This document shows positions 3,701-60,771 of a stretch of DNA of 64,000 nt, in pieces. Location of the stretch: positions 26,724,001-26,788,000 of the forward strand of contig CM075987.1 of NCBI GenBank assembly GCA_038087875.1, in the 5' to 3' direction. The DNA comes from Malacoraja senta. Taxonomy: Eukaryota. Numbering within the stretch: position 1 is the first letter of the stretch; each line of letters starts with the position of its first letter. The notes beneath the pieces were generated by a model. That model was not told the origin of the DNA. It saw nothing but the letters and a program-made list of their open reading frames with translations, and made no database searches. The translations under genes and the position numbers were made by a program.

Positions 3701-4072
3701 GGATAGAGCTAGTGTAGGGGGGATCGCAGGTCAGCGCGGACTCAGTGGGCTGAAGGGCCTGTATCCCTCAAGAACCAATCTAAACTTTCCCAAGCATGGA
3801 GAGAGAAAAATACCCGAGTCAGACAGTTAATGATGGAGAAAAAAAAATCCAACAGGCTGGATCATGCAAACACAAATTACAACCCGTTTGCACTTTAACC
3901 CTGGGTAATGTTAGTCTGGAAGAAATAGGCACTGCAAAGCACATTAGTGGAATAAATAACCTTTAGATGAGCAGCCATGGTACACATTGTTTCTGCTTCT
4001 AATAGGGGTTACACAATAGAGCCAGGCAATGGAACATTAAGGCAAAAGATTCGGAACATCAACAAATCAGCT

Positions 4073-4413
4073 GTGTTTAAGAAGGAACTGCAGGTGCTGG
4101 AAAATCGAAGGTAGACAAAAATGCTGGAGAAACTCAGCGGGTGCAGCAGCATCTATGGAGCGAAGGAAATAGGCAACGTTTCAGGCCGAAACCCTTCAGG
4201 GTTTCGGCCCGAAACGTTGCCTATTTCCTTCAGGGTTTCAAACGTTGCCAAACCCTTCAGGGTTTCGACCCGAAACGTTGCCTATTTCCTTCAGGGTTTC
4301 AAACGTTGCCAAACCCTTCCGGGTTTTTTTCGGCCCAAAACGTTGCCTATTTCCTTCGCTCCATAGATGCTGCTGGGCCCGCTGAGTTTCTCCAGCATTT
4401 TTGTCTACCAGCA
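4073..4413. mobile_element. Penelope-derived fold-back element with central 61-bp tandem units
   Basis: Inverted arms (GGTAGACAAAAATGCTGGAG... / ...CTCCAGCATTTTTGTCTACC) match the 3' end of the PLE at 41901; TSD AAATCAGCT at 4064-4072 and 4414-4422. Confidence 0.8.
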
Positions 4414-4974
4414 AAATCAGCTTTGCTATTTTTGGTTGTTTGAAAACCACAAAACATTTACACAGCTAAAGTTTCATTAAAAATTTCTCGAGGCAATGCA
4501 AACGTGGTAGCCCGCTCCGGTTCCCAGTGTTTGAGAATTGGAATGGCACATAGAATTGGGGGAGGTTTGAAATTTAGGTTTACCATTTTGCAACGGAAGA
4601 TAGACACAGCAAGCTGTTGCAACCGATGCGTTCCAGGCCCCCGCCATTAATTGTGAAAATTCCTTGCCCTCAACATCTCCAGTAAACTCCAGCAAATCTC
4701 CCCTCAACCTCTGCTGTTCCTGAGAAAATAATCCAGTTCTATCCAACCTCTTTGGAGCTGAAGCCCTCTAATGCAGGCAGCATACTGATAAAGCTCGTCT
4801 AACCCCTCTCCAAAGTCTCCACATCCTCCCTGTATTAGAAACATAGAAAACAGGTGCAGGAGTAGGCCATTCGACCCTTCGAGCCGGCACCGCCATTCAA
4901 TAAGATCATGGCTGATCATCCACAATCAGTACCCCGTTCCTGCTTTCTCCCCATATCGCTTGATTCCGTTAGCC

Positions 4975-5281
4975 CCAAGAGCTCTCCCGAGTTAAAAAAA
5001 AATCAAACTCGTGGTAAGCACGGAGAATGAACGTAGCGGGTACGTCGGAGCTCGGGGACGTCTCTTAGCGGCTCGTAACGCTAACGGCAGGTACTCGGGA
5101 AGACTCGCTAATGGCATGTAAGCACGGGAAGACTCCTGAAGATTTTTTTTATCAACATGTTGAAAAATGTCCATGAGAGCCTCGAGTACCGACGAGCGCC
5201 CATTTCCGTAAATCTCCAAGTTTGAATCAGGGCAAACTCGGGAGAGCTCTTGGAATGAACTCGTACCGTGGGACAGGGCTA
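4975..5281. mobile_element. PIF/Harbinger-type MITE, left TIR truncated
   Basis: Same family as 11012, 16421 and 18449; right TIR ..GAACTCGTACCGTGGGACAGGGCTA. Confidence 0.8.
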
Positions 5282-6202
5282 TAACTCTCTAACAGGGCGA
5301 CCAGAACTGCAAGCAATATTCTCCAAAGTTTACAAATAAAGCGCAGTATAGACTTGGGTGGCTGTACAAAAAGCTATTGTAATCTTTGGAGGAAATAAAA
5401 TCACACCAAATTCAAGACAATGCTCCAATAAAATAAAACAGCGTGAGGCATTAAATATTAAACGTTGCTGAAGCCATGAAATAAGTGCAAGATATTTATC
5501 TACCTTTCCTTTGTTAGGTTTTGAATAAGAGCAATCATCCCTTTGAAATAAATATGTTAATATTGTACATCCATTAACTTAAAACAGCAGAAAACAGGGT
5601 ATTAAATAAATACATTTTAACTGTAATTCTATGGTTGAAAGTTGTAAATTATTCCATTAGCGGATTCCTATAATGTAGATAATCAGCATAAAAGTTCTTA
5701 TTCTGGGTAAATGGGATATTTTACTCTTATTATCACAGTGCGTGGAAAGAAGTCATTTGCACCATTGTGTTCATGCAATCTTTCAAAGTGCCAACCAATT
5801 AATTCTGTTCCCTTGTTTGCAAACCCGGAGACATGTTCATCCATGTAAAGTGTACTTAAAACATCAAAATCGTTTTTTTTGAATGGTTAAGATCCAAAGT
5901 CAACTGTGCATGCAGATAGAAGCATACACAAGCCAAACTACGCAGAGAAAGAAGAGGGCCTCGACCCAAAACGTCACCCGTTCCTTCTCTCCAGGGACGC
6001 TGCCTGTCCCGCTGAGTTACTCCAGCATTTTGTGTCTATCTTCAGACAAAGAAAAAAGCTGCATTCTAACGTTAACAACCCATCATCTGCTATCTATGTT
6101 GTTTTGTTTGTTTTACTCTCTCTCTCTCTCTTTCTCTCTCTGTCTCTCTGCTCATCCATGGAGACAGTAGACAATGCACCTTGTGTCAAGGCCTATTTAG
6201 AA

Positions 6203-6460
6203 GGTAGACAAAAGTGTTGGAGAAACTCAGCGGGTAACGGCCCGAAACTCAGGCAACGTTTCGGGCCGAAACCCTGAAGGGTTTGGCAACGTTTGAAACC
6301 CTGAAGGAAATAGGCAACGTTTCGGGCCAAAACCCTTCGGGTTTCGGCCCGAAACGTTGCCTATTTCCTTCGCTCCATAGATGCTGCTGCACCCGCTGAG
6401 TTTCTCCAGCACTTTTGTCTACCTACGATTTTCCAGCATCTGCAGTTCCTTCTTAAACAC
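6203..6460. mobile_element. Penelope-derived fold-back element, opposite orientation to the 4073 copy
   Basis: Inverted arms and the same internal unit; TSD AAGG(CC/TT)TATTTAGAA at 6188-6202 and 6461-6475. Confidence 0.8.
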
Positions 6461-6486
6461 AAGGTTTATTTAGAACCCGGGTGAAG

Positions 6487-6715
6487 AGCGCCAAGATGGC
6501 GCAGCGGTAAAGTTGCTGCCTTATAGCGCCAGAGACCCGGGTTCAATCCTGACTCCAGGCGCTGTCTATCTGTTGAAACCAAAGCTCCCGGAGAAAACCC
6601 ACGCAGGTCACGGGGAGAACGTACAAACTCCGTACAGACAGCACCCGTAGTCAGGATCGAACCCGGGTCTCTGGCGCTGTGAGGCAGCAACTCTACCGCT
6701 GCGCCACCCTGCCGC
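6487..6715. mobile_element. Two V-SINE 5' heads in inverted orientation
   Basis: + head at 6487-6570 (TGGCGCAGCGG..GGTTCAATCC) and - head at about 6585-6715. Confidence 0.8.
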
Positions 6716-7169
6716 TCCAAAACTTCAACAGGGAAATTCACTTAATTCATCCAAAGGAAAACAGACAGGACTTAAGCAAATCCGGGCACTTACACGCCTT
6801 CTGTAGTTCTAGATTACTGGTTACAGCAGATTTAAGCATACCGTTTATTTCCATTCTGGCCCTTGTCCACCATTCACACTCCAACCCAAAGATGGCAATC
6901 TCACCATCTGTAAAGGATCTTCTTTTATACACATGATCCAAACTTCCTGTCACCCGACAAGGCCGTCCTGTCACGTGAAAAACCATTGGAGAGAACCAGC
7001 TTTGATTAAACTTTAACACATTAATCAATACCATACTTGATTTTATTAAACAATGTGAGTTGCACACACAGACCACAATGTTTACATGCCCCAAGTGGAA
7101 TGTACAATATGTGTCGGAAGGAACTGCAGATGCCGGCTTACACCGAAGATAGACACAAAATGCTGGAGT

Positions 7170-7540
7170 AACGTTTCGCTGAACACCTTCGCTCAGTCCG
7201 CCTGGACCTAACGGATCTCCCGGTTGCCAAACACTTTAATTCCCCTTCCCATTCCCACACTGACCTTTCTGTCCTGGGCCTCCTCCATTGTCAGCGTGAG
7301 GCCCAGCGCAAATTGGAGGAACAGTGCCTCATATTTCGCTTGGGCAGCTCACACCCCAGCGGTATGGATATTGATTTCTCTAACTTCAAGTAGCCCCGGC
7401 ATTCCCTCTCTCTCCATCACCGCCCCTACTTTTTGGCATATCTTTCATTCATTTGTTCTATATCTCTCTGCATCTATATCTCTCATTTCCCTTTGCCCTG
7501 AGTAGTCTGAAGAAGGGTTCTCGACTGAAAACGTCGCCCA
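7170..7540 (+). mobile_element. Penelope-like 3' fragment (end of GIY-YIG region plus 3' repeat)
   Basis: Matches the endonuclease end of the 42113 ORF (TTGGAGGAACAG..CATATTTCGCTTGGGCAG) and ends in a degenerate CTGAAGAAGGG motif. Confidence 0.7.
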
Positions 7541-7589
7541 TGATTTTGTACACCTTTATAAGATGCTACTGCGCTCCAAGGAATAGTCA

Positions 7590-10345
7590 CACAATGCTGG
7601 AGTAACTCAGCGGGACAGGCAGCATCGCTGGAGAGAAGGAACGGGTGACGTTTCAGGTCGAGACATCTTCTTCAGACTGAGAGTTAAGGGAGGGGGAGGA
7701 GGAGACACAGAGATAAGGAAGCATAAGGTGTGAGAATGAGACATCAAACGGGGTGGAGATCAAGGAAGTCGTACAGATCATTGTTAGCTGGGAGAAGGTA
7801 ACAACAAAGCAAACAGAGAAAATATGTAATCAGGAAGTCAGACGGGTCGGAGGACTGGGAAGGGGAAGGGATGGAGAGAGAAGGAAAGCAAGGGTTACTT
7901 GAAATTAGAGGTCAATGTTCATAGAAACATAGAAACATAGAAAATAGGTGCAGGAGTAGGCCAGTCGGCCCTTCGAGCCTGCACCGCCATTCAATATGAT
8001 CATGGCTGATCATCCAACTCAGTATCCTGTACCTGCCTTCTCTCCATACCCCCTGATCCCTTTAGCCACAAGGGCCACATCTAACTCTCTCTTAAATATA
8101 GCCAATGAACTGGCCTCAACTACCCTCTGTGGCAGAGAATTCCAGAGATTCACCACTCTCTGTGTGAAAAATGTTTTTCTCATCTCCGTCCTAAAAGTTG
8201 TCCCCTTTATCCTTAAACTGTGACCCCTTGTTCTGGACTTCCCCAACATCGGGAACAAACTTCCTGCATCTAGCCTGTCCAACCCCTTAAGAATTTTGTA
8301 CGTTTCTGTAAGATCCCCCCTCAGTCTTCTAAATTCCAGCGAGTACAAGCCGAGTCTATCCAGTCTTTCCTCATATGAAAGTCCTGACATCCCAGGAATC
8401 AGTCTGGTGAACCTTCTCTGTACTCCCTCTATGGCAAGAATGTCCTTCCTCAGATTAGGAGACCAAAACTGTACGCAATACTCCAGTGTACCAAGACCCT
8501 GTACAACTGCAGTAGAACCTCCCTGCTCCTATACTCAAATCCTTTTGCTATGAATGCTAACATACCATTCGCTTTCTTCACTGCCTGCTGCACCTGCATG
8601 CCCACTTTCAATGACTGGTGTACCATGACACCCAGGTCTCGTTGCATCTCCCATTTTCCTAATCGGCCTTTATCCACATTTATCCACATTATACTGCATC
8701 TGCCATGCATTTGCCCACTCACCCAGCCTATCCAAGTCATCTTGCAGCCTCCTAGCACCCTCCTCACAGCTAACACTGCACCCCAGCTTTGTGTCATCCG
8801 CAAACTTGGAGATGTTGCATTCAATTCCCTCGTCCAGATCATTAATATATATTGTAAATAGCTGGGGTCCCAGCACTGAGCCTTGCGGTACCCCACTAGT
8901 CACTGCCTGCCATTCTGAAAAGGACCCGTTTACTCCTACTCTTTGCTTCCTGTCTGCCAGCCAGTTCTCTACCCATATCAATACTAAACCCCCAATGCCA
9001 TGTGCTTTAAGTTTGTATATTAATCTCTTATGTGGGACCTTGTCGAATGCCTTCTGAAAGTCCAGATATAACACATCCACTGGTTCTCCCTTATCCACTC
9101 TACTAGTTACATGCTCGAAAAATTCTATAAGATTCGTCAGACATGATTTACCTTTCGTAAATCCATGCTGACTTTGTCCAATGATTTCACCACTTTCCAA
9201 ATGTGCTGCTATCCCATCTTTAATAACTGACTCTAGCAGTTTCCCCACTACCGGTGTTAGACTAACTGGTCTGTAATTCCCCATTTTCTCTCTCCCTCCC
9301 TTTTTAAAAAGTGGGGTTACGTTAGCTACCCTCCAATCCTCAGGAACTACTCCAGAATCTAAAGAGTTTTGAAAGATTATCACTAATGCATTCACTATTT
9401 CTGGGGCCACTTCCTTAAGTACTCAGAGATGCAGCCTATCTGGCCCTGGGGATTTATCGACCATTAATCCATTCAATTTACCTAACACCACTTCCCGGCT
9501 AACCTGGATTTCCCTCAGTTTCTCCATATCATTTGACCCCCGGTCCCCCGCTATTTCCGGTAGATTAATTAAGTCTTCCTTAGTGAAGACAGAACCAAAG
9601 TAGTTATTCAATTAGTCTGCCATTTCCTTGTTCCCCATGATCAGTTCACCTGTTTCTAACTGCAAGGGACCTACATTTGTTTTAACTAATCTTTTTCTCT
9701 TGACATTTCTATAAAAACCTTTGCAGTCAGTCTCTATGTTCCCTGCCAATTTTCTTTCATACTCTATTTTCCCTTTCCTAATTAAACTCTTTGTCCTCCT
9801 CTGCTGGACTCTGAATTTCTCCTAGTCCTCCGGTAGGCTGCTTTTTCTGGCTAATTTGTACGCTTCATCTTTTGTTTTGATACTATCCCCGATTTCCCTT
9901 GTTATCCACGGATACACTACCTTCCCTGATTCATTCTTTTGCCAAACTGGGATGAGCAATTGTTGTAGTTCATCCATGCAGCCTTTAGATGCCTTCCATT
10001 GCATATCCACCGTCAACCCTTTAAGAATCAATTGCCAGTCTATCTTGGCCAATTCACGTCTCATACCCTCAAAGTTACCTTTCTTTAAGTTCAGAACCCT
10101 TGTTTCTGAATTAATTATGTCACTCTCCATCCTAATGAAGAACTCAACCATATTATGGTTCATACCACTGGGTGTGAGATGCCCAAGCGAAATATGAGAT
10201 GCTGTTCCTCCAATTTGCGCTGGGCCTCACTCTGACAATGGAGGAGGCCCTGGACAGAAAGGTCTGTGTGGGAATGGGAGGGGGAGTTAAAGTGTTTGGC
10301 AACCGGGAGATCAGGTAGGTTCAGGCGGGCTGAGCGGAGGTGTTC
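7590..10345 (-). mobile_element. Penelope-like 3' fragment split by a CR1 insertion (pieces 7590-7920 and 10157-10345)
   Basis: Sequence resumes across the CR1 at GTTCATA; ORF 10160..10450 has EHLRS..PVAKHFNSPSHS..KLEEQHLIFRLG. Confidence 0.7.
7921..10156 (-). mobile_element. 5'-truncated CR1 LINE, ORF2 reverse transcriptase remnant with frameshifts and stops
   Basis: ORFs 8670..9410 ([45 protein letters not shown]), 8019..8390, 9423..9611 and 9822..10163; (TATGTTTC)n tail; GTTCATA duplicated at both ends. Confidence 0.95.
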
Positions 10346-11011
10346 AGAGAAACTCCAGCATTTTGTGTCTATCTTCGGTGCAAACCAGCATCTGCATTTC
10401 CTTACGACACATATTGTACATATTGGAGGGGGAGTTAAAGTGTTTGGCAAACGGGTGATCAGGTAGGTTTAGGCGGACAGAGAGGAGGTGTATCCAAGGA
10501 ATAGAGTCCCCGCTTGCTCCCCCTCTTCCTTGTAGTCTAATCCCAGCTGACATGCGGCCCCTCAGCCTAATGCACTGAATGGAAGATGGACTGAGTAGAG
10601 GATTCTACTTGTGACACTTTTGTTTTGTTCTGTCTCCTCACTGTCAGGCTCTTCGCCGGACAGTACCATTCATCAGAGCGTGTGAGGAAGTGCATGCGAG
10701 ATCAATTGTAGTCTGGGCCTCCGTGGCATTCAGAAGAATTACAATCAGTTCCGCTCAAGCGGACAGCTGATAACTGACTGTCTCCCTGTGAAGACTACAA
10801 ATTGAAAACCTTCAACTATGTTCCGTCCATGCATTGTAAAATGTCTCCACTGTAATGGAGTAGGCCTTTATTTCCACTCTGACTGGCCCTTTGTCTATTC
10901 CATGTCAGTTTCATACCATCAAAATCAACTGCTCACTGATTTTTTCCCCACAGCTGAACCACTGCGTTGTACACGCATGCCTAAACTACTCTAGGATCAG
11001 CCTCCCTCTAA

Positions 11012-11331
11012 TAGCCCTGTCCCACAGTGCGAGTTCATTCCAAGAGCTCTCCCGAGTTTTTTTTTTAAATCACTCATGGTAAGCACGGAGAATGAACGTA
11101 GCGGGTACGTCGGAGCTCGGGGACATCTCTTAGCGCTAACGGCAGGTACTCAGGAAGACTCGCTAAAGGCAGGTAAGCACGGGAAGACTCGTGAAGATTT
11201 TTCAACATGATGAAAAATGTCCATGAGAGCCCCGAGTACCGACGAGCGGCCATTACCGTAAATCTCCAAGTTTGAATCAGGGCAAACTCGGGAGAGCTCT
11301 TGGAATGAACTCGTACTGTGGGACAGGGGTT
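11012..11331. mobile_element. PIF/Harbinger-type MITE
   Basis: About 45-bp TIRs (TAGCCCTGTCCCAC..AAGAGCTCTCCCGAGTTT); TAA/TGA flanks; non-coding. Confidence 0.85.
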
Positions 11332-11356
11332 TGAGAAAAACTAGATAACATTCTTA

Positions 11357-11667: not shown

Positions 11668-12234
11668 ATTTAAATGGAAGCTGGCAGATTGATGGAACCA
11701 CAATGCTAAATCGCGAGGATTTTACAAACGGTAGAGTCAATGTGTGCAGAACAATATACAAACCAATCCTTTGAAAAATGCAATCTATTTCTAAAGAGTT
11801 TGAAGTAAGGTCCTGACCCAAAACATCACCCATCCACATAATCCAGAGATGCTGCCTGACCCACTGAGTTACTCCAGCACTTTGTGTCCTTTACTGTAAA
11901 CCAGCATCTGCAGTTCCTTGTTTCCTCAAAGAGTTCTTATTTTTTTGCTCTGTTCAAGTTAAATAAGAGAGATACTGTATCTTGACTAAACAGGAAGGTT
12001 GCAGATAGACACAAAGTGCTGGAGTAACTCAACGGATCGGGCAGTATCTCTGGAGAAAATGAATAGGTGACGTTTCTGGTCGAGACCCTTCTTCGGACCT
12101 CTGAAGGGAGTTCTTTGAAACACTCTCTCACTCTAAACCCTATCCATTTACTCCAGAGTTGCTGCCTGACCCGTTGGGTTATTCAAGCATTTGGTGTCTA
12201 TCTTCGGTGTAAACCAACATCAGAGTTCCTTGTT

Positions 12235-12798: not shown

Positions 12799-13043
12799 CT
12801 GACTTGAAATTGTCCTGATCTGACCATTCTGTAACTTCACACTTATCAATGCAATTGACCCTTAAGAACTTAAGTGCAATCCACTCAGGTAATTTGTTAA
12901 ATTTATTGTGCTTATTATTTAGATGAACACTAAATATCAGTCTTGCCAGTAAAATCTACATCCTGCAAATGCATGCTTTTTTTAAAGTGGAAATGTCATG
13001 ACTATTCAGGCAAAACTCTTGAGCACATATCTAGGCAAATACT

Positions 13044-13233
13044 AGGTACACAAAAATGCTGGAGAAACTCAGCGGGTGCAGCAGCATCTATGGAGCGAAG
13101 GAAATAGGCAACGTTTCGGGCCAAAACCCTTCTTCAGACTGATAGGGGTGGGGAGAAGAAAGGAAAAAAGGAAAAAGGCGGAGGAGGAGCCCGAGGGCTG
13201 GGGGAGGGGAGGAGACAACCAGAGGGCTGATGA
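13044..13233 (-). mobile_element. Short 5'-truncated Penelope-like 3' end
   Basis: Near-identical to 41901-42095; 11-bp TSD AGGCAAATACT at 13033-13043 and 13234-13244. Confidence 0.85.
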
Positions 13234-13500
13234 AGGCAAATACTGTTGTGGAAATCACATAATGTTGTGGAAATCTTCCCCTTGCTAGTGATGGCATTTT
13301 TGAAATAAGATCTTAAACTGTGCCTCTATCAACTTTCTAAAATAACCTGCAAACACATAGACAGACACAAAATGGAGAGGCAGCATCACTGGAGAGAAGG
13401 AATAGGTGACGTTTCGGGTCAAGACCCTCCTTCAGACTGAGAGTCAGAGGACAGGGAAACGTGAGTTATGGAAGGGTCAAGTGTGAAAACGAGAGATCAA

Positions 13501-15215: not shown

Positions 15216-16420
15216 CCCAAGACTCTAAAATGAGTTACAGACAATGAAACTCACCAGGACGACATTGAAACTCGTCCAACGACCAGAGGTTGGGGAGGGA
15301 CAGAGATAGAGTGGGGATGCAAGGATTACTTGAAGTTTGAGAAATCAATATTCATACCACTGGGTTGTAAGTAATATCTCATCTTCATTTCTCTTAACCA
15401 TCATTCACAACTGTCCCTGTGATTGCCTCGTGAGAAATTAATGTTTCAGCTTAAAAGCCATTTTCCCAAAGGCTTTTTTCTTGCGTTGTCTGCTTCACGA
15501 TCCTTCTTTTATAAAGAACACATGAAGGAAGCTGGTATCTGCAGATGATATTATTTATATATTACTTAAATGTTATTCATTTAGTCTTGAATCATTCAAC
15601 CAAATTATTATGCCAAACTTCCAACATCAAACAGGAAATGTTGCATTTGTAGTCTTTTTATATTAAATTTAATGGAATGAAGAATCACATCAATCTAAAA
15701 TGGCCACCAGGAGTTATCAGAAGTAATAACAAACTTTTAATTAATTATGCTGTGCCCCAATTCTATAAAATAATGTTGATAGTCACCGGAGGTGATGTTG
15801 CAATGACTAGGCTTCATTAGAAGTAAATTAGAATGTGGAAGCATCAAGGAACAGCATGAGAGCCTTCATTAAAATGCCTCGAACACCACTGCTGACCATC
15901 AGTAAAACTTGCACAAAGAACCTCAGCTTTTCCTTGATGAATACGCCTGGCAATTATTTTTCGCAAAATCTTTCATCGTTCTTTGAGATGCAAACGTCTA
16001 GAAATGAAGCTGTGTAGGAAGGGAGGAACTGCAGATGCTGGTTTAAACCGAAGGTAGACACAAAATGCTGGAGCAACTCAACTCAGCGGGACAGGCAGCA
16101 TCTCTGGGGAGAAGGAATAGGTGACGTCTCGGGTCGAGACCAGAGTCTGAAGAAGGGTCTCGACCCCGAACGTCATTCATTCCTTCTCTCCAGAGATGCT
16201 GCCTGCCCCGCTGAGTTACTCCAGCTTCAAGGTCCTTCATGCCAGCTTTTCCTCATTTTCTATCTGTTAGGCAGGAGCGTTTTGCCAGCATCTTCAAGTA
16301 ATTACTCATACCTTACAAATGATTCTGCGCTTTGTACAGGTAGTTTGAAGTTTAGCAAACAGTACAGCTCATGCATGTGTGACTTACACAGTTGAGAATA
16401 GACCCAAACTGCTGAAGTTA

Positions 16421-18448: not shown

Positions 18449-18742
18449 AACCCCTGTCCCACGGTACGAGTTCATTCCAAGAGCTCTCCCGAGTTTGCCC
18501 TGATTCGAACTCGGAGATTTACGGTAATGGCCACTCGTCGGCACTCGGGGCTCTCGTGGACATTTTTCATCATGTTGAAAAATCTTCACGAGTCTTCCCG
18601 TGCTTACCTGCCGTTAGCAAGTCTTCCCCAGTACCTGCCGTTAGCGCTAAGAGACGTCCCCGAGCTCCGACGTCCCATGAGTTTGATTTTTTTAAAACTC
18701 GGGAGAGCTCTTGGAATGAACTCGTACCGTGGGACAGGGCTA
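18449..18742. mobile_element. PIF/Harbinger-type MITE, reverse orientation, internal deletions
   Basis: Same TIRs as the 16421 copy. Confidence 0.85.
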
Positions 18743-19080: not shown

Positions 19081-19399
19081 TCAGAATTGCAATGTACAGT
19101 TCTGCACTTTGGCTCAAGGTATGTTCCGCATTGTATGGAAATATCCTTCAGTGTAATTTTTTTGACCAAATCCTACATTTACGTAGTTAAACATCATCAC
19201 CCTTCTTCATATGATTCAAAATGATGAATTCTGATGTGCTTTTGTTTGAGATTTAATGTCTCGTGTCTTCTGGTGCTCAGGAGTGCTCTCACACCTCTCC
19301 ACTGTAATGTTTCCAAGGCTTGAATATCACTCAGGCCACAGTGTCAAAGGGTCAATGCAGTAGCGTGGGTATAATCCACCCAGACCACTTCACAAAATG

Positions 19400-19620
19400 A
19401 CACAAAGTGCTGGAATAACTCTGCGGGTCAGGCAGCATCTCTGGACAACATGGATAAGGTGACGTTTCGTGTCGAGACCCTTGCACAGTCTGAAAAAGGG
19501 TCTCGACCTGAAACATCACCTACCAATGTTCTCCAGAGATGCTGCCTGACCTGTTGTGTTACTCCAGCACTTTGTGTACTTTTCTACATCAACATGCATC
19601 TTCAGTTCTTTGTTTCTGAA
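19400..19620. mobile_element. Penelope-derived fold-back element
   Basis: Inverted arms meeting at GAGACCCTTGCACAGTCTGAAAAAGGGTCTC. Confidence 0.7.
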
Positions 19621-20634: not shown

Positions 20635-21267
20635 TAACAAGAGGAATCGAATATAGGAGCAAAGAGGTCCTTCTGCAGTTGTACAGAGCCCTAGTGAGAT
20701 AACACCTGGAGTATTGTGTGCAGTTTTGGTCCCCTAATTTGAGGAGAGACATTCTTGCTATTGAGGGAGTGCAGCGTAGGTTTACAAGGTTAATTCCCGG
20801 GATGGCAGGACTGTCATATGCTGAGAGAATGGAGCAGCTGGGCTTGTACACTCTGGAGTTTAGAAGGATGAGAGGGTATCCCATTGAAACATATAAGATT
20901 GTTAAGGGTTTGAACACGCTAGAGGCAGGAAACATGTTCCCGATGTTGGGGGAGTCCAGAACCAGGGGCCACCGTTTAAGAATAAGGAGTAAGCCATTTA
21001 GAACGGAGACGAGGAAACACTTTTTCTCACAGAGAGTGGTGAGTCTGTGGAATTCTCTGCCTCAGAGGGCGGTGGAGGCCGGTTCTCTGGATGCTTTCAA
21101 GAGAGAGCTAGATAGGGCTCTTAAAAATAGCGGAGTCAGGGGATATGGGGAGAAGGCAGGAACGGGGTACTGATTGGGGATGATCAGCCATGATCACATT
21201 GAATGACGGTGCTGGCTCGAAGGGCCGAATGGCCTACACCTGCACCTATTGTCTATTGTCTATTGTC
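20635..21267 (+). mobile_element. CR1 LINE 3' end, (TATTGTC)n tail subfamily
   Basis: ORF 20718..21173 (QFWSPNLRRDILAIEGVQRRFTRLIPG..SQRVVSLWNSLP). Confidence 0.92.
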
Positions 21268-21803: not shown

Positions 21804-22566
21804 TGAACATGTATAGGAAGGATTGCAGATCTGGTTTAAACTGAAGATTGACACAAGCAGCTGGAGTAACAGGTGACATTTCAGGTCGAGACCCTTCGTC
21901 AGATGAAGGGTCTCAAGCCGGAACATCACCTATTCCTTTGCTCCGAAGTTGTTGTCAGACCCACTGAGTTACTCCAGCTGTTTGCATCTATCTTCATTGT
22001 ATGTATATGTATACATACACACACATTTTGTTCTCGTTTATTCTATTGTTTACAGTGTACCATGTTAACATATTCTGTCGTGCTGCTGCAAGTAAGAATT
22101 TCATAGTGTAGGAAGGAACTGCAGATGCTGGTTTACGCCAAAGAAAGACACAAAATGCTGGAGTAACTCAGTGGGACAGGCCGCAACTCTGTAGAGAAGG
22201 AATGGGTGACGTTTTGGTTCGGTATAGAACCTTCTTCAGACTCAATATAACACCCTTGACTCTCGACTTTTGACTCCCTTGAGCCCCAACAGGCAATGAG
22301 CAGACCTCCTCTGGGCCCCTTGAGAACTCAAACAGAGAGGTGAAGGATTGCGCGCTGACCTACTTTGGCAGCCTGAGCTCTCAAAGCAATTAAGTTTGAT
22401 GCAGGGAGGGTATTTTACTTCACTTCTCCTCCCATTCCCACCCTCACTACATCAAAACGTATTAACAGTCTAACGCATGAATCAAAACCCAATAGATGTT
22501 TGGAATATTTAAACAGAATCAAGGGAATTTGGGTTTTATAGCTCTGGATTAACATTATTAATACAG

Positions 22567-23047
22567 GGGGCGGCAAGGTGGCGCAGCGGTAGAGTTGCTG
22601 CCTTACAGCGCCAGAGACCCGGGTTCAATCCTGACTACGAGTGCTGTCTGTACGGTGTTTATACATTCTCCCCCTGTGACCGCGTGGGTTTACTCCAGGT
22701 GCTCCGGTTTCCTCCCACACTCCAAAAATGTGCAGGTGCAGTTTAGTTTGGAGATACAGCGCGGAAACAGGCCCTTCGGCCCACCGAGGCTGCGCCAATC
22801 AGCCGTCACCCCGCACACCAGCACTATCCTGCACACACTAGGGACAATTTTACAATTTTACAGAAGCCAATTAACCAACAAACCTGTACGTCTTTCGAGT
22901 GTGGAAGGAAACCGGAGCACCCGGAGGAAAACCACATGGTCACAGGGAGAACGTACAAACTCCGTACAGACAGCCCCCATAGTCAGGATTGAACCGGGGT
23001 CTCTGGCGCTTTAAGGCAGCAACTCTACCGCTGCGCCACCTTGCCAC
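22567..23047. mobile_element. V-SINE 5' half (+, 22567-22738) joined to a full reverse V-SINE (-, 22741-23047)
   Basis: Both match the SINE consensus in opposite orientations. Confidence 0.85.
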
Positions 23048-23320: not shown

Positions 23321-24118
23321 TTGTCAATAACACCAAGCATCGTCTGCTTTCATCTGTCCTTTTCACACCTTACATTCAATAGGGAGGGGAAAAAAACGTG
23401 AAGCTTTTTCAGAACCAAGGTGGAAAACAAATTTCAGATGCAGATGTAAAGATACGGATGATTCATGATACTGTGCAGCGAGCAGCGAACAGCGAACAAC
23501 AAGATACATATTTCTCTGCATTAATCAATCAAAGATATGTTCACTGATACATAAATACACAAGCATCGTTTCAGCACTGAGCAATTTAAAACAAGGAATT
23601 AACATTAAACCAACAGGGAAATGTGCGAGCGTGGAGGATCGCTGGTCAGTGCGGACTTCTCTAAACTAAACTAAACTGAAGGGTCTCGACCCGGAACGTC
23701 ACCTATTCCTTCGCTCCAGAGATGCTGCCTCACCCGCTGACTTACTCCAGCTTTTTGTGTCTGCAGTATCTTGCCTTATTTACTGTAAAGCCCATTTCTT
23801 CCACACCCCTTGTGTAATCAATGATGGCTGAATATTGCTTGGACAGAACTCAGTTGGCCTAGATTTTAAGCCAGGAGTAACCCTTGTTTCTCACTCAAAA
23901 ATCAAAAGGTTTATTTGTCACAAGTGCCAACAACTGAAGAATGAAATTCTTTCACCTCCATCCTGTACAACTGTGGCTAAACCCTATTCTATAACTCCAA
24001 CTAATTGTACGGTATGTATGCCTCATTGTCACCTTCTCCTCAGCTGTCAGTGAACCATTCCACATTTGAATGAATAATACTTGATTGCCACATGTGACAA
24101 GTCACAGTGATATTCTTA

Positions 24119-24458
24119 TGGGCCTGTCCCACTTACGCGACTTTTTCGGCCACTGCCGGCACCCGTCATAGGTCGTTGCAGGTCGGAGAAAATGTTCAAC
24201 ATGTTGAAAATCCAGCGGTGACCAGAAAGACGCCACGACTCTTTGGACGACTAGGAGACGACTCACGACCGTACGGGCGATACCCAGGCGACATGTCGCG
24301 GGGTGAAGCCTGTATGGTCGTGAGTAGTCGCCCAAAGAGTCGTACCTTGTCCTGATCGCCGCTGGATTTTCAACATGTTGAACATTTTCGGCGACCTGCA
24401 ACGACCCATGACGGGTGTCGGCAGTCGCTGAAAAAGTTGCGTAAGTGGGACAGGCCCA
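24119..24458. mobile_element. PIF/Harbinger-type MITE, second family, nearly palindromic
   Basis: TIR TGGGCCTGTCCCACTTACGC; perfect TTA TSD at 24116-24118 and 24459-24461; internal inverted repeats. Confidence 0.88.
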
Positions 24459-25463
24459 TTAGGCAGCATCTCTGTGGAAAAGGAATAGGTCACTGAAGAT
24501 AGACACAAAATGCTGGAGTAACTCAGCGGGACAGGCAGCATCTCTGGAGAGAAGGAATGGGTGACGTTTCGGGTCTAGTTTGGTTTAGTTTATTGTCACG
24601 TGTACAGAGGTACAGTGAAAAGCTTTTTGTTGCGTGCCAACCAGCCAGCGGAAAGACAATACATGATAACATGGGTAAGTGGGACGGGCCCGTTAGTTCT
24701 CGGTGGTCCCCCCACGCCGGGTCCTCCTTTGCTCTTGGCGGCATATCCGCCCTCCGGCCCCCCGCGTGGCCAGCCCTCGATCGCCTTCCCTCATCTTGAG
24801 CATCGTCTGCTTTCATCTGTCCTTTTCACACCTTACATTCTTTTAATTCCCTTCCACATCGCTAGCTTCCCTCTCCCCTGACTCTCTGTCTGAAGAAGGG
24901 TCTCGACCCGAAACGCCACCCTATCCTTCTCTCCAGAGACGCTGCCTGTCCCGCTGAGTTACTCCAGCATCTTGTGTCTACCTTCGTAAGTAAAATCTTG
25001 TTTAAACGATGACTAGAATGTGCAAATCACCAAACATCTGCAGATATCCCACACTCATGTGTCGTCCAAATTGCAACTACAGAGGCCGTCATTTAGCAAA
25101 TGCGCCCCGTAAGTTTAGTTATAAAAATGATTTTTACTGGAGTACGTCCAACATGTGCCTTTTGTATCCTTCAGCCATGCCCAGCTTTGTGTCGTATAAT
25201 GTTCCAATTAAACCTGAAGATGGATAAGAGAAAGATGAGCATTATGCTAATGCACGCAGTGAACCTCAGGATTTTAACGGCACAATATGCTAATCTGTGG
25301 AATAATTACAATGCCTGGCATAGGGGTGTAAGAGAAATGCTTTGATTAGCTAAACTGTTCGTGCAACATTTGAGTGCAGTAATTTTGAAACTGCCGCATC
25401 GGTCAGCAAAATCTTGCACAAAGCATGTTAGTCTCATCATGTTTGGACTGGTGTTGTTGATCA

Positions 25464-27654: not shown

Positions 27655-27918
27655 GGACTGCCTAAGAAAGAACTGCAGATGCTGGAAAAATCGAAGGTAG
27701 ACAAAAATGCTGGAGAAACTCAGCGGGTGAGGCAGCTGTCTCCGCCTCTTCCTTTCTTCCCCCCCCCCCCCCCCCGCCGACATCAGTCTGAAGAAGGGTC
27801 TCAACCCGAAACGTCACCCATTCCTTCTCTCCAGAGATGCTGTCTGACCCGCCGAGTTACTCCAGCAATTTTTGTCTATCTTCGGTGTAAACCGACATCT
27901 GTAGTTCCTTCCTACACT
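27655..27918. mobile_element. PLE-derived fold-back with hammerhead core at 27788-27815 (+)
   Basis: Inverted PLE-end arms; CTGAAGAAGGGTCTCAACCCGAAACGTC. Confidence 0.7.
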
Positions 27919-28180: not shown

Positions 28181-28540
28181 GTGTTTAAAGAAGAACTGCA
28201 GATGCTGGAAAAATCAAAGGTAGACAAAAATGCTGGAGAAACTCAGCGGGTGAGGCAGCATCTATGGAGCGAAGGAAATAGGCAACGTTTCGGGCCGAAA
28301 CCCGAGGGTTTCGGCCCAAAACGTTGCCTATTTCCTAACCCTAACCCTAACCCAAGGGTTTCTGCCCAAAACGTTGCCTGTTTCCTAACCCTAACCCTAA
28401 CCCAAGGGTTTCTGCCCAAAACGTTGCCTATTTCCTAACCCTAACCCTAACCCAAGGGTTTCGGCCCAAAACGTTGCCTATTTCCTTCGCTCCATAGATG
28501 CTGCCTCACCCGCTGAGTTTCTCCAGCATTTTCGTCTACC
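28181..28540. mobile_element. PLE-derived fold-back with three 50-bp units containing (CCCTAA)n
   Basis: Inverted arms; the unit TTTCCTAACCCTAACCCTAACCCAAGGGTTTC..AAAACGTTGCCT starts at 28331, 28381 and 28431. Confidence 0.8.
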
Positions 28541-37112: not shown

Positions 37113-37125
37113 AAACATAAAAAAG

Positions 37126-37302
37126 CTCAGGTAGACAAAAATGCTGGAGAAACTCAGCGGGTGAGGCAGCATCTATGGAGAGAAGGAATAGGCGACGTTT
37201 CGGGTCACCTATTCCTTCTCTCCATAGATGCTGCCTCACCCGCTGAGTTTCTCCAGCATTTTAGTCTACCTTCAATTTTTCCAGCATCAGCAGTTCTTTC
37301 TT
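37126..37302. mobile_element. PLE-derived fold-back element
   Basis: Inverted arms centred near 37200; AAACATAAAAAAG duplicated at 37113-37125 and 37303-37315. Confidence 0.78.
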
Positions 37303-37956
37303 AAACATAAAAAAGTCCAGTGTGTATATATACATACTGTACACGCACGCACACACAGATGCACACACACACACACATATATATCTATACTGAGTCTGAA
37401 GAAGGGTCTCGACACAAAATGTCACCCATTCCTTCTCTCCAGAGATGCCAGCCAGTCATTAGCAGAGGCAACCTACAACTGGTGGATTGCATTATTCTAT
37501 AAATGTCATCTGTAACTTACACTGCCAATTTACAATCTTCTCTAGACAGGGACAATTAAAATCGGCATTGTATTTTCAATTCAAATGTTACAAAAACGAT
37601 TTGTGAATGTAATTATGCAAACATATTTATTTTATTAATTTAATCAAAGTCTGTCCCTATAGATAGGTTTATTCATTTTATTTCTGTTTGCTTTGATTCC
37701 TTTCACTGTGAAATCCTTACATGAGGAATTCCTTCAACACCATGGGTTCAATTAGTAACAGATGCCACAAACGTCTCATCTTTGTGACTGGCTGAAAAGG
37801 CATTTGTGTAAACCATCCACTGACGAGCAATTCTTTCGCTCCAGTACGAGACCTGATATGTTACCTCGTTATTCAAACTGCACTTTGCCACTCCACTGCA
37901 TCGCCCCAGGTGCAGGGAATGCAACAGGCAAACGCAGTGGGATCGTTCAGGCTAAA

Positions 37957-39155: not shown

Positions 39156-39622
39156 CACACACATCAGAGTTCTTTCCCAATAAACTTTTGTGGGATCATA
39201 TAATGCCATTTATTTAGTCACCTTAGAACAGCAACAGTGGTACCTTAGCCTTGCCTTCTGCTTCCATGAAAGGGCATAAACTGCTGGAATAACTCAGCGG
39301 GACAGGCAGCATCTCGGGATTGTACGAATGGTTCTTTCTTTCTATCCATTGTATCTCATTCCTTCTCTCCCGAGATGCTGCCTGTCCCGCTGAGTTACTC
39401 CAGCATGATGTGTCAATCTTGGGTGTAAACCAGCATCTGCAGTTCCTTCTTACACAAGTGCTGGAGTAACTCTGCCGGTCAGGCAGCATCTCTGGAGATC
39501 CTTCCATGGTTTCCATGAGGAGAATCTACTGCTTCCATGAGTGGGTTCCCTTTCTAGTCTCTGAACAGCCCCCACCTCTTCTCTTACAATCACAAAACGT
39601 TATTCCTCTTATCATGTATCTG

Positions 39623-40990: not shown

Positions 40991-41965
40991 CTTTTCCTGT
41001 TTACTTGTCTACAGATTATTCTTGTATTCCCTTTTGTTTATTTCCAATCTTTTCTCATGCTCTGACTTTACCTCTTGTATTTACTTTTAATTTCCTCTTT
41101 GAAGTCCCCGTGATGAGTTCAGTGTTCCCTCGGGTTAATCTGTCATCATTCATAGTTCATTTTCTTTCCGGCTCTGTATTCCTTCCTCTATTTTTAATTT
41201 AGTCTGGCTTTAAGCCGTCTATACCACTCCCTTAAGGGACAGTTACTGTAATATTTCCACCTTCATTCAATCGTAGCTTTGCCAAACAATGTGTTGCATT
41301 TACCCAGAGTCATAGAGTGATCCAGCATGGAAACAGGCCCTTCGGTCCAACTTGCCAAGAAAGAATACTTTATTCTCTCATGTTGCAAGTCACAGTCAAA
41401 TTCTTTGCTTGCATAGCCAAGGTATACAAAGAGTCACCACCTAAAGGGCACTGCCAAAGTTACAAAGTACCCGTGTCGGGTCCTGCTTTGATCCACCCCC
41501 CCCCCACTGACGGCGGTCCCACCGCACCAAGTCCACGTGTACCGGTGATCACTGGTCGGCGCTGACTGGGTGGGCCGAAGGGCCTGTTTCCACGCTGTAT
41601 CTCTAAACTAAACTTGCAACTTATGTTGAGAAGGCTGGAAGACTAGAAATATAGCTTATGAATCTTTGTATGGATTATTATTTCAACACTAGAATTATAG
41701 ATCCACTTAAAGCTAATACTAAATCGTTGCTTTGATAGGTAGGCTATTAAATGATGTTCAGTTTCTTGGTAATAGTAGTTACTCAGAGTAAGTAAGTTGT
41801 CCTCAGCCCAGGTTGTTATCAGCCCGACAGTACAACAATGTACTATAGTTTATTCTTCCACAAATTTGTCCTCAATCAGTCTGTAAAGGATAGACTCAAA
41901 GGTACACAAAAATGTTGGAGAAATTCAGCGGGTGCAGCAGCATCTATGGAGCGAAGGAAATAGGC

Positions 41966-41993
41966 AACGTTTCGGGCCGAAACCCTTCTTCAG
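41966..41993 (-). ncRNA. Putative minimal hammerhead ribozyme core in the PLE 3' end
   Basis: Sense to the ORFs: CUGAAGA-A-GGGU(UUCG)GCCC-GAAA-CG-UU. Confidence 0.65.
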
Positions 41994-42112
41994 ACTGATA
42001 GGGGGTGGGGAGAAGAAAGGAAAAAAGGAAAAAAAGGCGGAGGAGGAGCCCGAGGGCTGGGGGATGGGAGGAGACAACCAGAGGGCTGATGAAGGGGAGG
42101 GGACAGCAAGGG

Positions 42113-42673
42113 CTAGCAGAGTTGGGAGAATTCAATGTTCATGCCCCCAGGATGTAGACTGCCCAAGCGGAATATGAGGTGCATTTCCTCCAATTTCCGG
42201 TGTTGCTCGCTGTGGCCATGGAGGAGACCCAGGACAGAGAGGTCAGATACGGAATGGGAGGGGGAATTGAAGTGCTGAGCCACCGGGAGGTCAGGTTGGT
42301 TATTGCGGACCGACCGGAGGTGTTCGGCGAAACGATCGCCAAGCCTCCGCTTGGTCTCACCGATGTAGATCAGCTGACATCTAGAGCAGCGGATGCAATA
42401 GATGAGGTTGGAGGAGATGCAGGTGAACCTCTGTCGCACCCTGAACGACTGCTTGGGTCCTTGAATGGAGTCGAGGGGGGAGGTGAAGGGACAAGTGTTG
42501 CATCTCTTGCGGTTGCAAGGTAAAGTACCCGGGGAGGGGGTGGTATGGGAGGGAAGGGAAGAATTGACAAGGGAGTTGCGGAGGGAGTTGCGGAAGGCAG
42601 ACATGGGGGGAGATGGGAAGATGTGGCGAGTGGTGGGGTCACGTTGGAGGTGGCGAAACTGTCGGAGGATCAC
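42113..42673 (-). pseudogene. Penelope GIY-YIG endonuclease remnant
   Basis: CNRKRCNTC linker, FTCISSNLIYCIRCSRC..YIGETKRRLGDRFAEH. Confidence 0.9.
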
Positions 42674-42711
42674 TTGTTGTATGTGACAGCTGGTGGGGTG
42701 AAAGGTGAGGA

Positions 42712-43233
42712 CTAGGGGGACTCTGCCCTTGTTGTGAGTGGGGGATGGGGAGAGAGAGCAGTGTTGCGGGGTATGGCAGAGACCCTGGTGCGAGCCTCAT
42801 CTATGGTGGAGGAGGGGAACCCCTGTTCCCTGAAGAATGAGGACATTTCGGATGCCCTGGTGTGGAACGCCTCATCCTGGGAGTCCTTACAGGAAGCAGG
42901 GTGGGAAGAAGTGTAGTCCAGATAGCCATGGGAGTCGGTAGGTTTGTAATGGATGTCGGTAAGAAGTCTATCACCTGCGATGGAGATAGTGAGGTCAAGG
43001 AATGGTAGGGAAGTGTCGGAAATGGTCCAGGTGTATTTGAATGCCGGATGGAAGTTGGTGGTGAAGCGGATGAAGTCAGTCAGTTGTGTGTGGGTGCAGG
43101 AGGTGGCACCAAAACAGTCATCGATGTAGCGGAGGTAGAGGTCGGGGATGGGGCCCTGGTACGCATTGAACAAGGATTGTTCTACGTACCCGACAAAGAG
43201 GCAGGCGTAGCTGGGGCCCATGCGTGTGCCCAT
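42712..43233 (-). pseudogene. Penelope reverse transcriptase remnant
   Basis: MGTRMGPSYACLFVG, YLRYIDDCFG, LPFLDLTI, YKPTDSHGYL; 5'-truncated and out of frame with the EN. Confidence 0.9.
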
Positions 43234-43496
43234 AGCTACGCCTTGTATTTGGAGGAAATGGGAGGAGTCAAATGAGAAGTTATTGAGGATAAGGACCAGC
43301 TCCGCTAGGCGGAGGAAGGTGTCAGTGGCTGGGTATACGTTGCTTCTCTGGTCGAGGAAAAACCGGAGGGCTCAAAAAAGGATAGACTCAAAATACTGGA
43401 GATGATGCTCTTTTATTCTGGACCCTCGTGCGGGAAAAAAAAGCAGAGCATTTACCCTGTCTAGTCCGTTAAGTATCTTAGTCATTTTAATAGTTT

Positions 43497-48752: not shown

Positions 48753-49176
48753 ACTAACTCCATGCATTGTGTTCTTTCTGGCTTTTCATATCAACTAATA
48801 ACAGTTCAGTTCAGTTTAGTTTATTGTCACGTACACCGAGGTACAGTAAAAAGTTTTTGTTGCGTGCTAACCAGTCAGCAGAAAGACGACACATTATAAT
48901 TGAGCCATCCACAGTGTACAGCTATGTGATACAGGGAATAAAATCCAATAAAGTGCAAAATAAAAATGAGTAAAGTCCGATCAAAGATAGTTTGAGGGTC
49001 TCCAATAAGGTCGCCTCCTTTTGCTCTGGTAGTTTATTTAATTCACATGTTTAATCAATAATGTTTTATTATTAATGTTTAATGTTTTATGTGTCATTCC
49101 TAACTGTCACTGTATGTCATGTTGTCACTTGCGGGCAGAGCACCAAGGCAAATTCATTGTATGTGAATACTTGGCC

Positions 49177-53473: not shown

Positions 53474-53781
53474 AAAATGCAGGAGTAACTCAGCGGGACA
53501 GGCAGCATCTCTGGAGAGAAGGAATGGCTGACGTTTTGAGTCAAGACTCTTCGGACTGAGTCTGGGGAGAGGGAAACTAGTGGTTTGGTTTCTATCACGA
53601 CTGTAGCAGCATTACTGCTAGTGAGGTGCACCCTCCCTCATTCTATTCCTTGGACCAAATCACCACTCTGGAGATGTTTTTGATGAAGTGGCTCCAGCTG
53701 GCGTGGCCATGTTTGGCGATGAAAATGACTTTCATTGTACACGAGCCACTGTGTCTCCCATTGAGGTGGCTTGCACTAACA

Positions 53782-55115: not shown

Positions 55116-55129
55116 TTAATCATCTATTC

Positions 55130-55349
55130 TGAAGATAGACACACAATGCTGGAGTAACTCAGCAGGACAGGCAGCATCTCTGGAGTGACGGAATAGGTGA
55201 TGTTTCGGGTCGAGTCCGTTCTTCAGACTCAAACCAAAACGTCACCCATTACATCTCTCCAGAGATGCTGCCTGTCCCACTGAGTTACTCCAGCATTTTG
55301 TGTCTATCTTCGGTTTAAACCAGCATCTGCAGTTCCTTCCTACACATCC
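55130..55349. mobile_element. PLE-derived fold-back element
   Basis: Inverted arms; perfect 13-bp TSD TAATCATCTATTC at 55117-55129 and 55350-55362. Confidence 0.82.
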
Positions 55350-55380
55350 TAATCATCTATTCATTGGCAATGAATGGACA

Positions 55381-57437: not shown

Positions 57438-58389
57438 CAACGTCTTGTACAACTGCATAGCTTGCCTCCCTAGTTTAGAGATACAGCATGAAAACAGACT
57501 CTTTGGCCCACCGAGTCCATGCCGACCAGCGATCACCCCTACACTAGTTCCATCCCACACACCAGGGAAATTCCCAGAAACCAATTAAACTACAAACGTG
57601 TGCAGGAAGGAACTGCAGATGCTGGTTTAACCTGAAGATAGACACAAAAAGCTGAAGTAACTCCACGGGTCAGCCAGGTGTTGTCTGACCTGCTGAGTTA
57701 CTCCAACTTTTAACCTACAAACTTGGCTGGATGCATTTTGTAATAGTTCCACCAGAAGAATAAATGATCCACCTCGGCTTTCTCCCGAGATCCGGATCAT
57801 GACAGAAATCAGTCTTCAAACAATTCGATTCCCTCTGCGTGAAGTCAAGAAAGGTTTGTCACCAATCGATGTAGTAAAATGCCATGGGTCTAGGCAATGA
57901 CCGAGCTGCAGGATTAAAGAGTGGAAACAAGAAACTGCTGATGCTGGCATGTACAAAGGTGCTGTAGTGATTCCGCAGCAACTCGATTCCATAGTAACTC
58001 GACCTAAGTCACCTACTCCTTTTGTCTTGAGATGCTACTTGACCCGCTGAGTTACTCCAGCACTTTGCGTCTACCTTCGGTTACGAGCATCTGCTGTTCC
58101 GTCCTACACAACTATTTTGATCCTTTATAATTACAGGCTGTCTCAGTAAGTGCCTTAGTAACGTGATGTACTCAGAAGAGATCCCAGATAGTCAAGATTG
58201 ATGAGGGACATCAAAGAGGTAGCTAGTAGTTCAGAGAGCAGCCCTGAACTGCCATCTACCTCTTTGATGTCCCTCGGACTATTCTTGACCAGACTTTGTT
58301 GGCTTTACCTTGCACTAAACGTTATCCCCTTATCATGTATCTATACAGTACACTGTAAATGGCTCGATTGTAATCATGTATTGTCTTTC

Positions 58390-59669: not shown

Positions 59670-59875
59670 TACTCAGTGGGACAGGCAGCATCTCTGGAGA
59701 GAAGGAACGGGTGATGTTTCGGGTTGGGACCCGTTGAAGGAAGTCTGAAGAAAAGTCTCGACCCGAAACGTCACCCATTCCTTCTCTCCAGAGATGCTGC
59801 CTGTCCCTCTGAGTTACTCCAGCTTTTTGTGTCTATCTTCGGTTTAAACCAGCATCTGCAGTTCCTTCCCACACA
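59670..59875. mobile_element. PLE-derived fold-back element
   Basis: Inverted arms; CTGAAGAAAAGTCTCGACCCGAAACGTC. Confidence 0.7.
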
Positions 59876-60771
59876 TACCTGCTGTGTTGCTGCAAGCAAG
59901 TTTTTAATTTTCCCATTTCTTGAATCCAATTTGATTTAGCCAGTATTTATGCTCCACACAAGTTTCCTCCCGCCTCACTTCATCAACATGCTCCATCCAC
60001 CAGGTCTTAAGTTGTACCCCCGAGTGTTATTTTGTGAAAGAAATCTATTTAATTTGCAATTGAATGAATTAAGTCTACTTGCATCCACAGCTTGCCTTGG
60101 GAGGTTATTTCATTGACTAGCCAGTTGTTCACTGAAATAGTGTTTCAGTAGATTAGTTTTTGAATTTATCCCCTTTATTCACTGGTGATGTCCACTGGTT
60201 TATAATTCTGCTCCAGATGAGATTGCTTGTCATGTTTAAGAAGGAACTGCAGATGCTGGAACAATCGAAGGTAGACAAAAATGCTGGAGAAACTCAGCGG
60301 GTGAGGCAGCATCTATGGAGCGAAGGAACAGGTGAGGTTTGGGTTGAGTTCCTCCAGCATTTTGTGTGTAATATCTTTTTGAATTCAATGGCATTTTGCT
60401 TTGTACAGTATTTGCTCTTCATGCAGCTTAATGCAGTTTCTGTCACAGCAAGGCTGATCCTTACTTGAGAAGGCGGCTTAATTAGGATTGAGTCAGGGCA
60501 CTTAGATAGCATCCATAAATATTTCAGCTGGACTCATTCACGGTTCATGCCTGCCACGTCAGATTTCTCCAGCTATTCATTGATCAAGTGTCGTTTCCCA
60601 GGAGAATAAACAAATAAGGAATCCATGGTATCAACGCTGTGAAGGCATTTCCTCATTGTTAATGCTACTTTTGTAGCTCGCAGCAAAAAGCATACTGGAG
60701 TGTAAGCTGCCCAATTTGCCCAAACCGTAGGTATGCAAGCAGAGAATTCCACCGTGACTTGTCACTTGTGG

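Follow-up and report, generated by a model that had tools for sequence, protein, structure and literature searches.

Short fold-backs of a Penelope-like element 3' end in Malacoraja senta mostly look like the shortest form of known head-to-head copies

We analysed a window of 64 kb (64,000 nucleotides) of Malacoraja senta that contains fold-backs made of two inverted copies of the 3' end of a Penelope-like element (PLE). Positions in these copies are given in ref numbering, which runs along the 3' end of the PLE coding copy of the window. On this scale CUGAAGA lies at ref 208, the short end at about ref 300 and the tail (~36 nt) at ref 302-337, and the hammerhead cut is predicted after ref 235 from reading of the motif. 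The fold-back at 4073-4409 comprises the following features.

4064..4072 (+): left target-site duplication (TSD), 9 bp, an exact direct repeat with 4414
4073..4197 (-): long arm, PLE pLTR ref 213-337, with the ~36-nt tail at 4073-4108
4189..4204 (unstranded): centre of the fold-back, located at the 5' margin of hammerhead stem II; the CUGA-N-GA box is lost
4198..4319 (+): a derived 61-nt unit, present twice in tandem and made of ref 215-248 and two short rearranged pieces
4320..4409 (+): short arm, ending at ref 300, without tail
4414..4422 (+): right TSD; 4 extra bases precede the copy

The two arms meet head-to-head, with inner ends at ref 213 (minus arm) and ref 215 (plus arm), and are 95% complementary across 82 nt. 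The predicted fold of 4073-4409 had a free energy of -201 kcal/mol (z -18.6), and the arms paired with each other throughout. On the minus strand of 4073-4151, a reading frame starts at an ATG downstream of the hammerhead and, by eye, extends through the tail in young copies; the ORF start of other PLEs lies in the pLTR.

The fold-back arms correspond to the coding copy's 3' end (4073: 95%), so that their source is an element with reverse transcriptase (RT) and GIY-YIG endonuclease. Two plain copies serve as references.

41885..43392 (-): PLE coding copy, 5'-truncated and broken, including its duplication (element 41896-43376), with RT end, CX4CxxC linker, GIY-YIG and 3' UTR
13033..13244 (-): solo copy, truncated, from the same young subfamily, without tail, duplication of at least 9 bp

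The coding copy is flanked by a 16-bp duplication (41885/43377), carries a hammerhead-like core at 41993-41966 and has no tail. Its endonuclease frame (ORF 42113-42796) contains the CX4CxxC linker motif between RT and GIY-YIG, and the best protein matches of this frame were from sharks and rays with 59-67% identity (top five of 19 hits). The C-terminal GIY-YIG scored slightly below the Pfam cut-off. Neptune-type PLEs have the same C-terminal GIY-YIG with a CX2-5CxxC linker ahead of it, and this linker is described as defining Neptune and as common to Nematis (PMC8557442). The linker thus points to Neptune or Nematis rather than Poseidon as the parent PLE, an assignment made by the linker in a truncated and broken copy. 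Poseidon was dropped as a label since the Zn-finger linker is present. Fourteen real matches to a minimal type I hammerhead-like core were found in the window. An Rfam search of the whole 64-kb window gave nothing at the gathering score, and no hammerhead family at E ≤10 over the core, which is uninformative as minimal PLE hammerheads require a descriptor.

We found 79 pieces of the PLE 3' end in the window, which were merged into 69 arms. Among these, 14 head-to-head pairs lay no more than 45 nt apart, compared to a mean of 0.9 and a maximum of 8 in 20,000 shuffles, and tail-to-tail pairs numbered only 2. The fold-backs described in the initial annotation therefore do exist, albeit with a wider size range (115-360 bp, against 180-350 bp). 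The other loci with this layout are as follows, with inner ends given approximately as minus arm/plus arm; the last is the long version, which is counted separately.

6187..6475 (unstranded): fold-back 6201-6460, tail right, ref 213/216, one 61-nt unit, 16-bp duplication with 2 mismatches
11993..12234 (unstranded): decayed fold-back, ref 206/237, tailed on the right, the left tail probably present but partly deleted
16011..16223 (unstranded): older fold-back, tail left, ref 217/205, without duplication
19396..19614 (unstranded): older fold-back, tail right, ~ref 214/204, without duplication
21810..21998 (unstranded): decayed fold-back, tail left, ~ref 207/206-210, without convincing duplication
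27663..27917 (unstranded): a young copy and an older one, head-to-head, ref 260/160, both tailed, without duplication
28181..28540 (unstranded): young fold-back, tail left, ref 216/215, three 50-nt units each with (TAACCC)3, duplication not found
37113..37315 (unstranded): fold-back 37130-37307, tail right, ~ref 225/235, 13-bp exact duplication 37113/37303
39272..39456 (unstranded): older fold-back (39278), tail right, ~ref 242/242, 30-nt spacer
55117..55362 (unstranded): older fold-back 55131-55346, tail right, ~ref 205/217-226, core motif intact, 13-bp exact duplication 55117/55350
57590..57722 (unstranded): 115-bp fold-back 57598-57712, tail left, ~ref 263/256, without hammerhead sequence
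59671..59875 (unstranded): older fold-back, tail right, ref 216/205, 9-nt spacer
60233..60370 (unstranded): fold-back, tail left, ~ref 226/274
7110..7541 (unstranded): long version of the head-to-head layout, tail arm (-) joined to a (+) copy whose start lies in the endonuclease ORF

Two of these (11993-12234 and 57598-57712) had not been listed before. All eight sites that the initial annotation had added to its four duplication-flanked cases were recovered, although the one near 27655 (27663) is probably two insertions; at the other seven, convincing duplications were sought and none was found. As had also been claimed, the fold-backs outnumber coding copies, with 14 in the window against one ORF-bearing remnant of 1.5 kb and four small pieces of the ORF end.

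Direct repeats of at least 8 exact bp flanked five of the 14 fold-backs (4073, 6201, 37130, 55131 and 57598; exact repeats of 8-13 bp), compared to 1 of 182 cross-paired, that is, mismatched flanks. The four repeats noted earlier were all present (4064/4414, 9 bp; 37113/37303 and 55117/55350, 13 bp each; 6187/6460, 16 bp with 2 mismatches), and that at 57590/57715 is 8 bp exact, or 13 bp with 1 mismatch by eye. These data support the insertion of the duplication-bounded fold-backs as single, PLE-derived units, and the earlier claim of unit insertion holds to this extent. In the other nine the duplication was absent or eroded; most of them are old, but 28181 and 60233 are young. By reading, exactly one arm carries the tail in 12 of the 14 fold-backs (p 0.006 against 0.5), the exceptions being 27663 and probably 11993. 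The 3' ends of the 79 pieces fell into two classes, at ref 296-304 (22/79) and ref 328-337 (28/79). In a fold-back, the tailed arm extends to ref 337, whereas its partner stops near ref 300.

The 5' ends were scored in 76 pieces, of which 14 continue into the UTR and 62 are truncated. Nineteen of the truncated pieces start at ref 200-208 and 13 at ref 209-217, several of the latter being repeated units from three loci, as opposed to only 2 at the cleavage site (ref 234-238). Hammerhead cleavage was rejected as the source of the 5' ends on this count. The fold-back junctions likewise crowd at ref 203-217, with varying spacer and tail side; 4073, 6201 and 28181 are all centred on ref 213-216, and none of the 14 junctions lies clearly at the cleavage site. 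The initial annotation had placed the meeting point of the arms at or near the hammerhead core, which is true of about 10 of the 14, whereas the arms of 57598, 39278, 60233 and 27663 join farther off. Its remark that many copies have lost the CUGA box was borne out: the CUGA-N-GA...GAAA..UH core is intact in 4 of the 14 fold-backs (a spurious match in 19400 being excluded) and in none of the young ones. The proposed association with the ribozyme was not upheld, as the 5' ends avoid the cleavage site and 10 of the 14 fold-backs have lost the core.

The vicinity of ref 205 is kept in 20 copies, half of which run into the pyrimidine-rich UTR. Among the ten UTR-less copies, eight begin exactly at ref 205, and six of these are preceded by G; counting one UTR-bearing copy, G precedes ref 205 in 6 of 9 non-C cases (p 0.025, post hoc), which is the pattern expected of a copied cap. 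The sequence TCAGT resembles an initiator. We infer that ref 204-207 is a preferred RNA 5' end, either a start site or a splice boundary, rather than a ribozyme cut. A 5' G in L1 products was interpreted as a copied cap (PMC2912911), the intron end in D. virilis was mapped to the start of hammerhead helix I (PMC4209133), and an intron and a promoter of a PLE are described in PMC2377424.

We compared the contigs of three DNA-type runs (X1, X3 and X7, from three organisms) along the coding copy, considering the best 15 of 471 joints and 24 of 4799 loose ends. Among the loose ends listed, contigs that end at ref 205-206 and continue into unlike sequence numbered at least 163 (X1), at least 287 (X3) and at least 275 + 267 (X7), with an agreement of ~0.34. 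These ends support the ref 205-206 breakpoint in three organisms; the G preceding ref 205 was not confirmed in these contigs, as the plurality letter differs. In X3, at least 85 contigs switch strand at about ref 218/233 (consensus agreement 0.53), at the midpoint of a short hammerhead palindrome, and this junction differs in type from that of 4073. Such a switch is as self-priming would give. No strand-change joint was among the best 15 of 471 joints. Among the best-supported of the joints listed for X1, X3 and X7 was a tandem one in which ref 248 leads back to ref 216 through a variable linking base; it could be inherited or arise repeatedly. Repeated origin would be possible, since with the centre at ref 213 CCTTC would form a direct repeat with ref 244-248. 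The summed contig depth fell 7- to 46-fold just upstream of the hammerhead in the three runs, which is a hint only, as this drop differs from a copy number and older UTRs diverge at that place. Pattern scans of metagenome contigs and of viral contigs gave 0 matches each.

The initial annotation had read the fold-backs as one non-autonomous, ribozyme-associated family. A tree was built from the 48 of 79 pieces of sufficient length (22 fold-back arms and 26 solo copies; 89 columns), and the arms were interspersed with solo copies of several subfamilies. The tree required 14 label changes compared to 16.2 after shuffling, and 91 of 500 shuffles were as low. A single fold-back clade was rejected (p-AU 4.5e-5, 89 columns), which rules out a single master while leaving room for several. 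In the young clade, five of eight loci are pLTR-only fold-backs. The partner arm ranked first or second among all pieces in four young loci that are TSD-bounded or near-perfect (4073, 6201, 28181 and 37130), and also in 39278; in the remaining older loci it ranked 3-30, no closer than other copies.

The one-family reading thus fails, since the junctions mostly differ, the arms lie among solo copies of several subfamilies, and a one-sided tail with a head-to-head layout is the published integration pattern of PLEs. The initial annotation had named a unique junction in every copy as evidence against its reading, and this was true of most loci: 11 of the 14 junctions differ in position or spacer, and the centre loops differ even between the three young loci. 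Two pairs, however, share a junction. The derived 61-nt unit with its three rearrangement joints occurs within the window in 4073 and 6201 alone, and their target duplications differ. Independent formation of this unit is therefore unlikely, and some fold-backs may have been recopied. The additional units of 4073, 6201 and 28181 are on the side that lacks the tail. In addition, 10158-10410 (10403) is a near twin of 7110-7390, ~90% alike, in inverted orientation and with the ORF-containing long arm; the two have in common the junction of tail arm and endonuclease ORF and ~11 nt of flank past the tail. Both pairs are close neighbours (1.8 and 3 kb) and inverted, so that local conversion or duplication is possible. 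At 56889-57166, a short inverted arm (from ref 205) is joined to a copy whose start lies in the final codons of the ORF; this copy finishes in the tail and has no hammerhead region.

In 28181, the three (TAACCC)3 runs (28336-28453) each lie just before hammerhead stem II and are the sole such runs in the window. They could reflect slippage of RT, repeats added by telomerase to the end of a cDNA, or a misassembly; in endonuclease-less PLEs, C-rich telomere repeats adjoin hammerheads (PMC8557442).

Comparison with known systems showed that most fold-backs look like the shortest form of head-to-head copies already known from PLEs rather than a new self-spreading family. Inverted pLTRs with a one-sided tail are described as the typical PLE layout (PMC8557442), and together with 3' extensions they are treated as known peculiarities of single copies (PMC8969392). 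In rotifer PLEs an inverted pLTR lies alongside, one end bears a 31-bp tail, and the TSDs measure 8-10 bp, against 8-16 bp here; palindromes at their head-to-head junctions led the authors to infer self-priming (PMC3846280). Complex insertions of endonuclease-positive PLEs share with the fold-backs the head-to-head 3' ends, the one-sided tail of 30-40 nt, the short TSD, the palindromic or microhomologous junction and the hammerhead-like motif in the pLTR, as described in PMC3846280, PMC8557442 and PMC2377424. In the published figures the inverted ends surround the ORF, whereas the units in our window are mostly pLTR only, with 14 in 64 kb. Paired minimal hammerheads on opposite strands, 100-700 bp apart, were ascribed to truncated PLEs in Schistosoma (PMC4209133). 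With an anole PLE in vitro, both target strands were cut and extended, reverse transcription had two internal start sites, one on either side of the tail, and ribozyme mutants still inserted (PMC11167929). L1 5' inversions formed by twin priming are likewise inverted insertions within one TSD, from a single integration and with variable junctions (PMC2912911). However, the two L1 primings copy different parts of the RNA, while both arms of a fold-back copy the same 3' segment from two fixed starts. Searches of the openly accessible literature listed no description of pLTR-only fold-backs from cartilaginous fish and no paper on PLE twin priming.

We consider it likely that the fold-backs represent minimal outcomes of integration by an elasmobranch Neptune-type PLE, formed anew at each insertion and not derived from one hairpin master. 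Our model takes the observed ends, duplications and junction positions and infers the steps between them. The GIY-YIG endonuclease would make a staggered cut in the target, and reverse transcription would begin within the pLTR at ref 337 or ref 300, merely 100-130 nt from the RNA 5' end. RT would then run off at the preferred RNA 5' end at about ref 204-207, just upstream of the CUGA box. The second arm might arise by self-priming, with the cDNA folding back on the short palindromes of the hammerhead, or by twin priming, with another cDNA primed on the other target strand. The inner ends would be joined imprecisely, with occasional slippage at the centre, and the role of the hammerhead region would be limited to marking the end of the RNA and supplying microhomology. 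The long arms with ORF sequence at 7110 and 10403 and the 115-bp unit without hammerhead at 57598 place the fold-backs at the short end of a continuum. Furthermore, the duplications of the plain coding copy (16 bp) and of the solo copy (at least 9 bp) are like those of the fold-backs (8-16 bp), which favours an origin by PLE integration.

The 61-nt unit of 4073 and 6201, the junction of 7110 and 10403, and the recurring ref 248-to-216 joint weigh against fresh formation in every case. They would suit a subset recopied as units, in which either a fold-back or a source with an inverted pLTR and the junction at its 5' end is mobilised in trans by the PLE enzyme, yielding small non-autonomous hairpin subfamilies much as initially proposed, minus the ribozyme. 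The distinct TSDs of 4073 and 6201, the extra units on the tail-less side and the recurrence of the tandem joint in three organisms favour such recopying; pLTRs are reported to suffice for mobilisation in trans (PMC3846280), and putative non-autonomous PLEs are described (PMC8557442). However, local conversion or duplication could explain both sharing pairs, which are inverted near neighbours, and the remaining 11 of 14 junctions are unlike each other, as are the centre loops of the three young loci. We regard recopying of a subset as rather unlikely.

Separate insertion of the two arms, whether by chance or because the element targets its own pLTR, with some internal repeats being assembly errors at hairpins, is considerably less probable still. 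It suits 27663, where the short arm is 81% identical to its partner and 96-97% to other young copies; differing in subfamily and age, with two tails and no duplication, these arms are probably two insertions. It may also suit 11993, and a PLE endonuclease indeed cuts its own pLTR in vitro (PMC11167929). At five loci, however, a TSD bounds the whole unit, head-to-head pairs outnumber tail-to-tail pairs 14 to 2, and young arms are each other's best or second-best matches. Assembly errors are disfavoured by the like tandem joints in independent runs.

A retrozyme-like cycle, in which the hammerhead excises an RNA unit that is circularised and reinserted, is largely refuted and has hardly any probability left. 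The pLTR does hold the minimal type I hammerhead-like core, and retrozymes are proposed to be PLE pLTR derivatives (bioRxiv 10.64898/2026.07.22.740005) and in their non-LTR form are likewise short, non-coding, PLE-pLTR-related and dispersed (PMC7229834; bioRxiv 10.64898/2026.07.22.740005). However, they are direct head-to-tail tandems with one intact type I hammerhead per unit, expressed as circles (PMC7229834), so that the head-to-head fold-backs, with the core mostly lost and in no young copy intact, ends off the cleavage site and, in the predicted fold of 4073, arm pairing with arm throughout, fall outside them.

A broader reading combines integration and recopying and is tentative, with the balance against it. 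The pLTR-only fold-back would be a main PLE integration product in elasmobranchs, and some of these would then have been re-mobilised as units. These would be hairpin retroelements of 120-360 bp that need neither ORF nor ribozyme, with inherited junctions such as the 61-nt unit, and telomere repeats would have been gained at the junction in one lineage.

The origin of the inverted ends of PLEs is described as open, with a call for mechanistic work (PMC8557442), and the steps after first-strand synthesis as unvalidated (PMC11167929). In the stubs, the PLE structure comes down to a pair of start sites, a single RNA end and a single junction. Since a genome holds many of them, self-priming and twin priming could be told apart by a census of their junctions. 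The stubs also mark the preferred RNA 5' end just upstream of the hammerhead and suggest that the element ends are not set by ribozyme cleavage. In introns they would be a dense source of dsRNA, and in annotation they could be mistaken for MITEs or a new SINE.

Other repeats lie beside the fold-backs. Inverted repeats unrelated to the PLE end, with arms of 45-236 nt, were observed at 11007-11336, 18452-18739, 22572-23045, 24115-24462 and 53166-53966; those at 11007 and 18452 have one arm sequence in common and resemble a MITE-type DNA element, which is partly present also at 4985-5280. Broken LINE-type reverse transcriptase frames occur at 8019-9422, 20703-21173, 39794-40369 and 49076-49926. 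The common SINE of the window is one that we take to be HE1, and two inverted SINE-like pieces with 82-nt arms (6486-6717) adjoin the 6201 fold-back.
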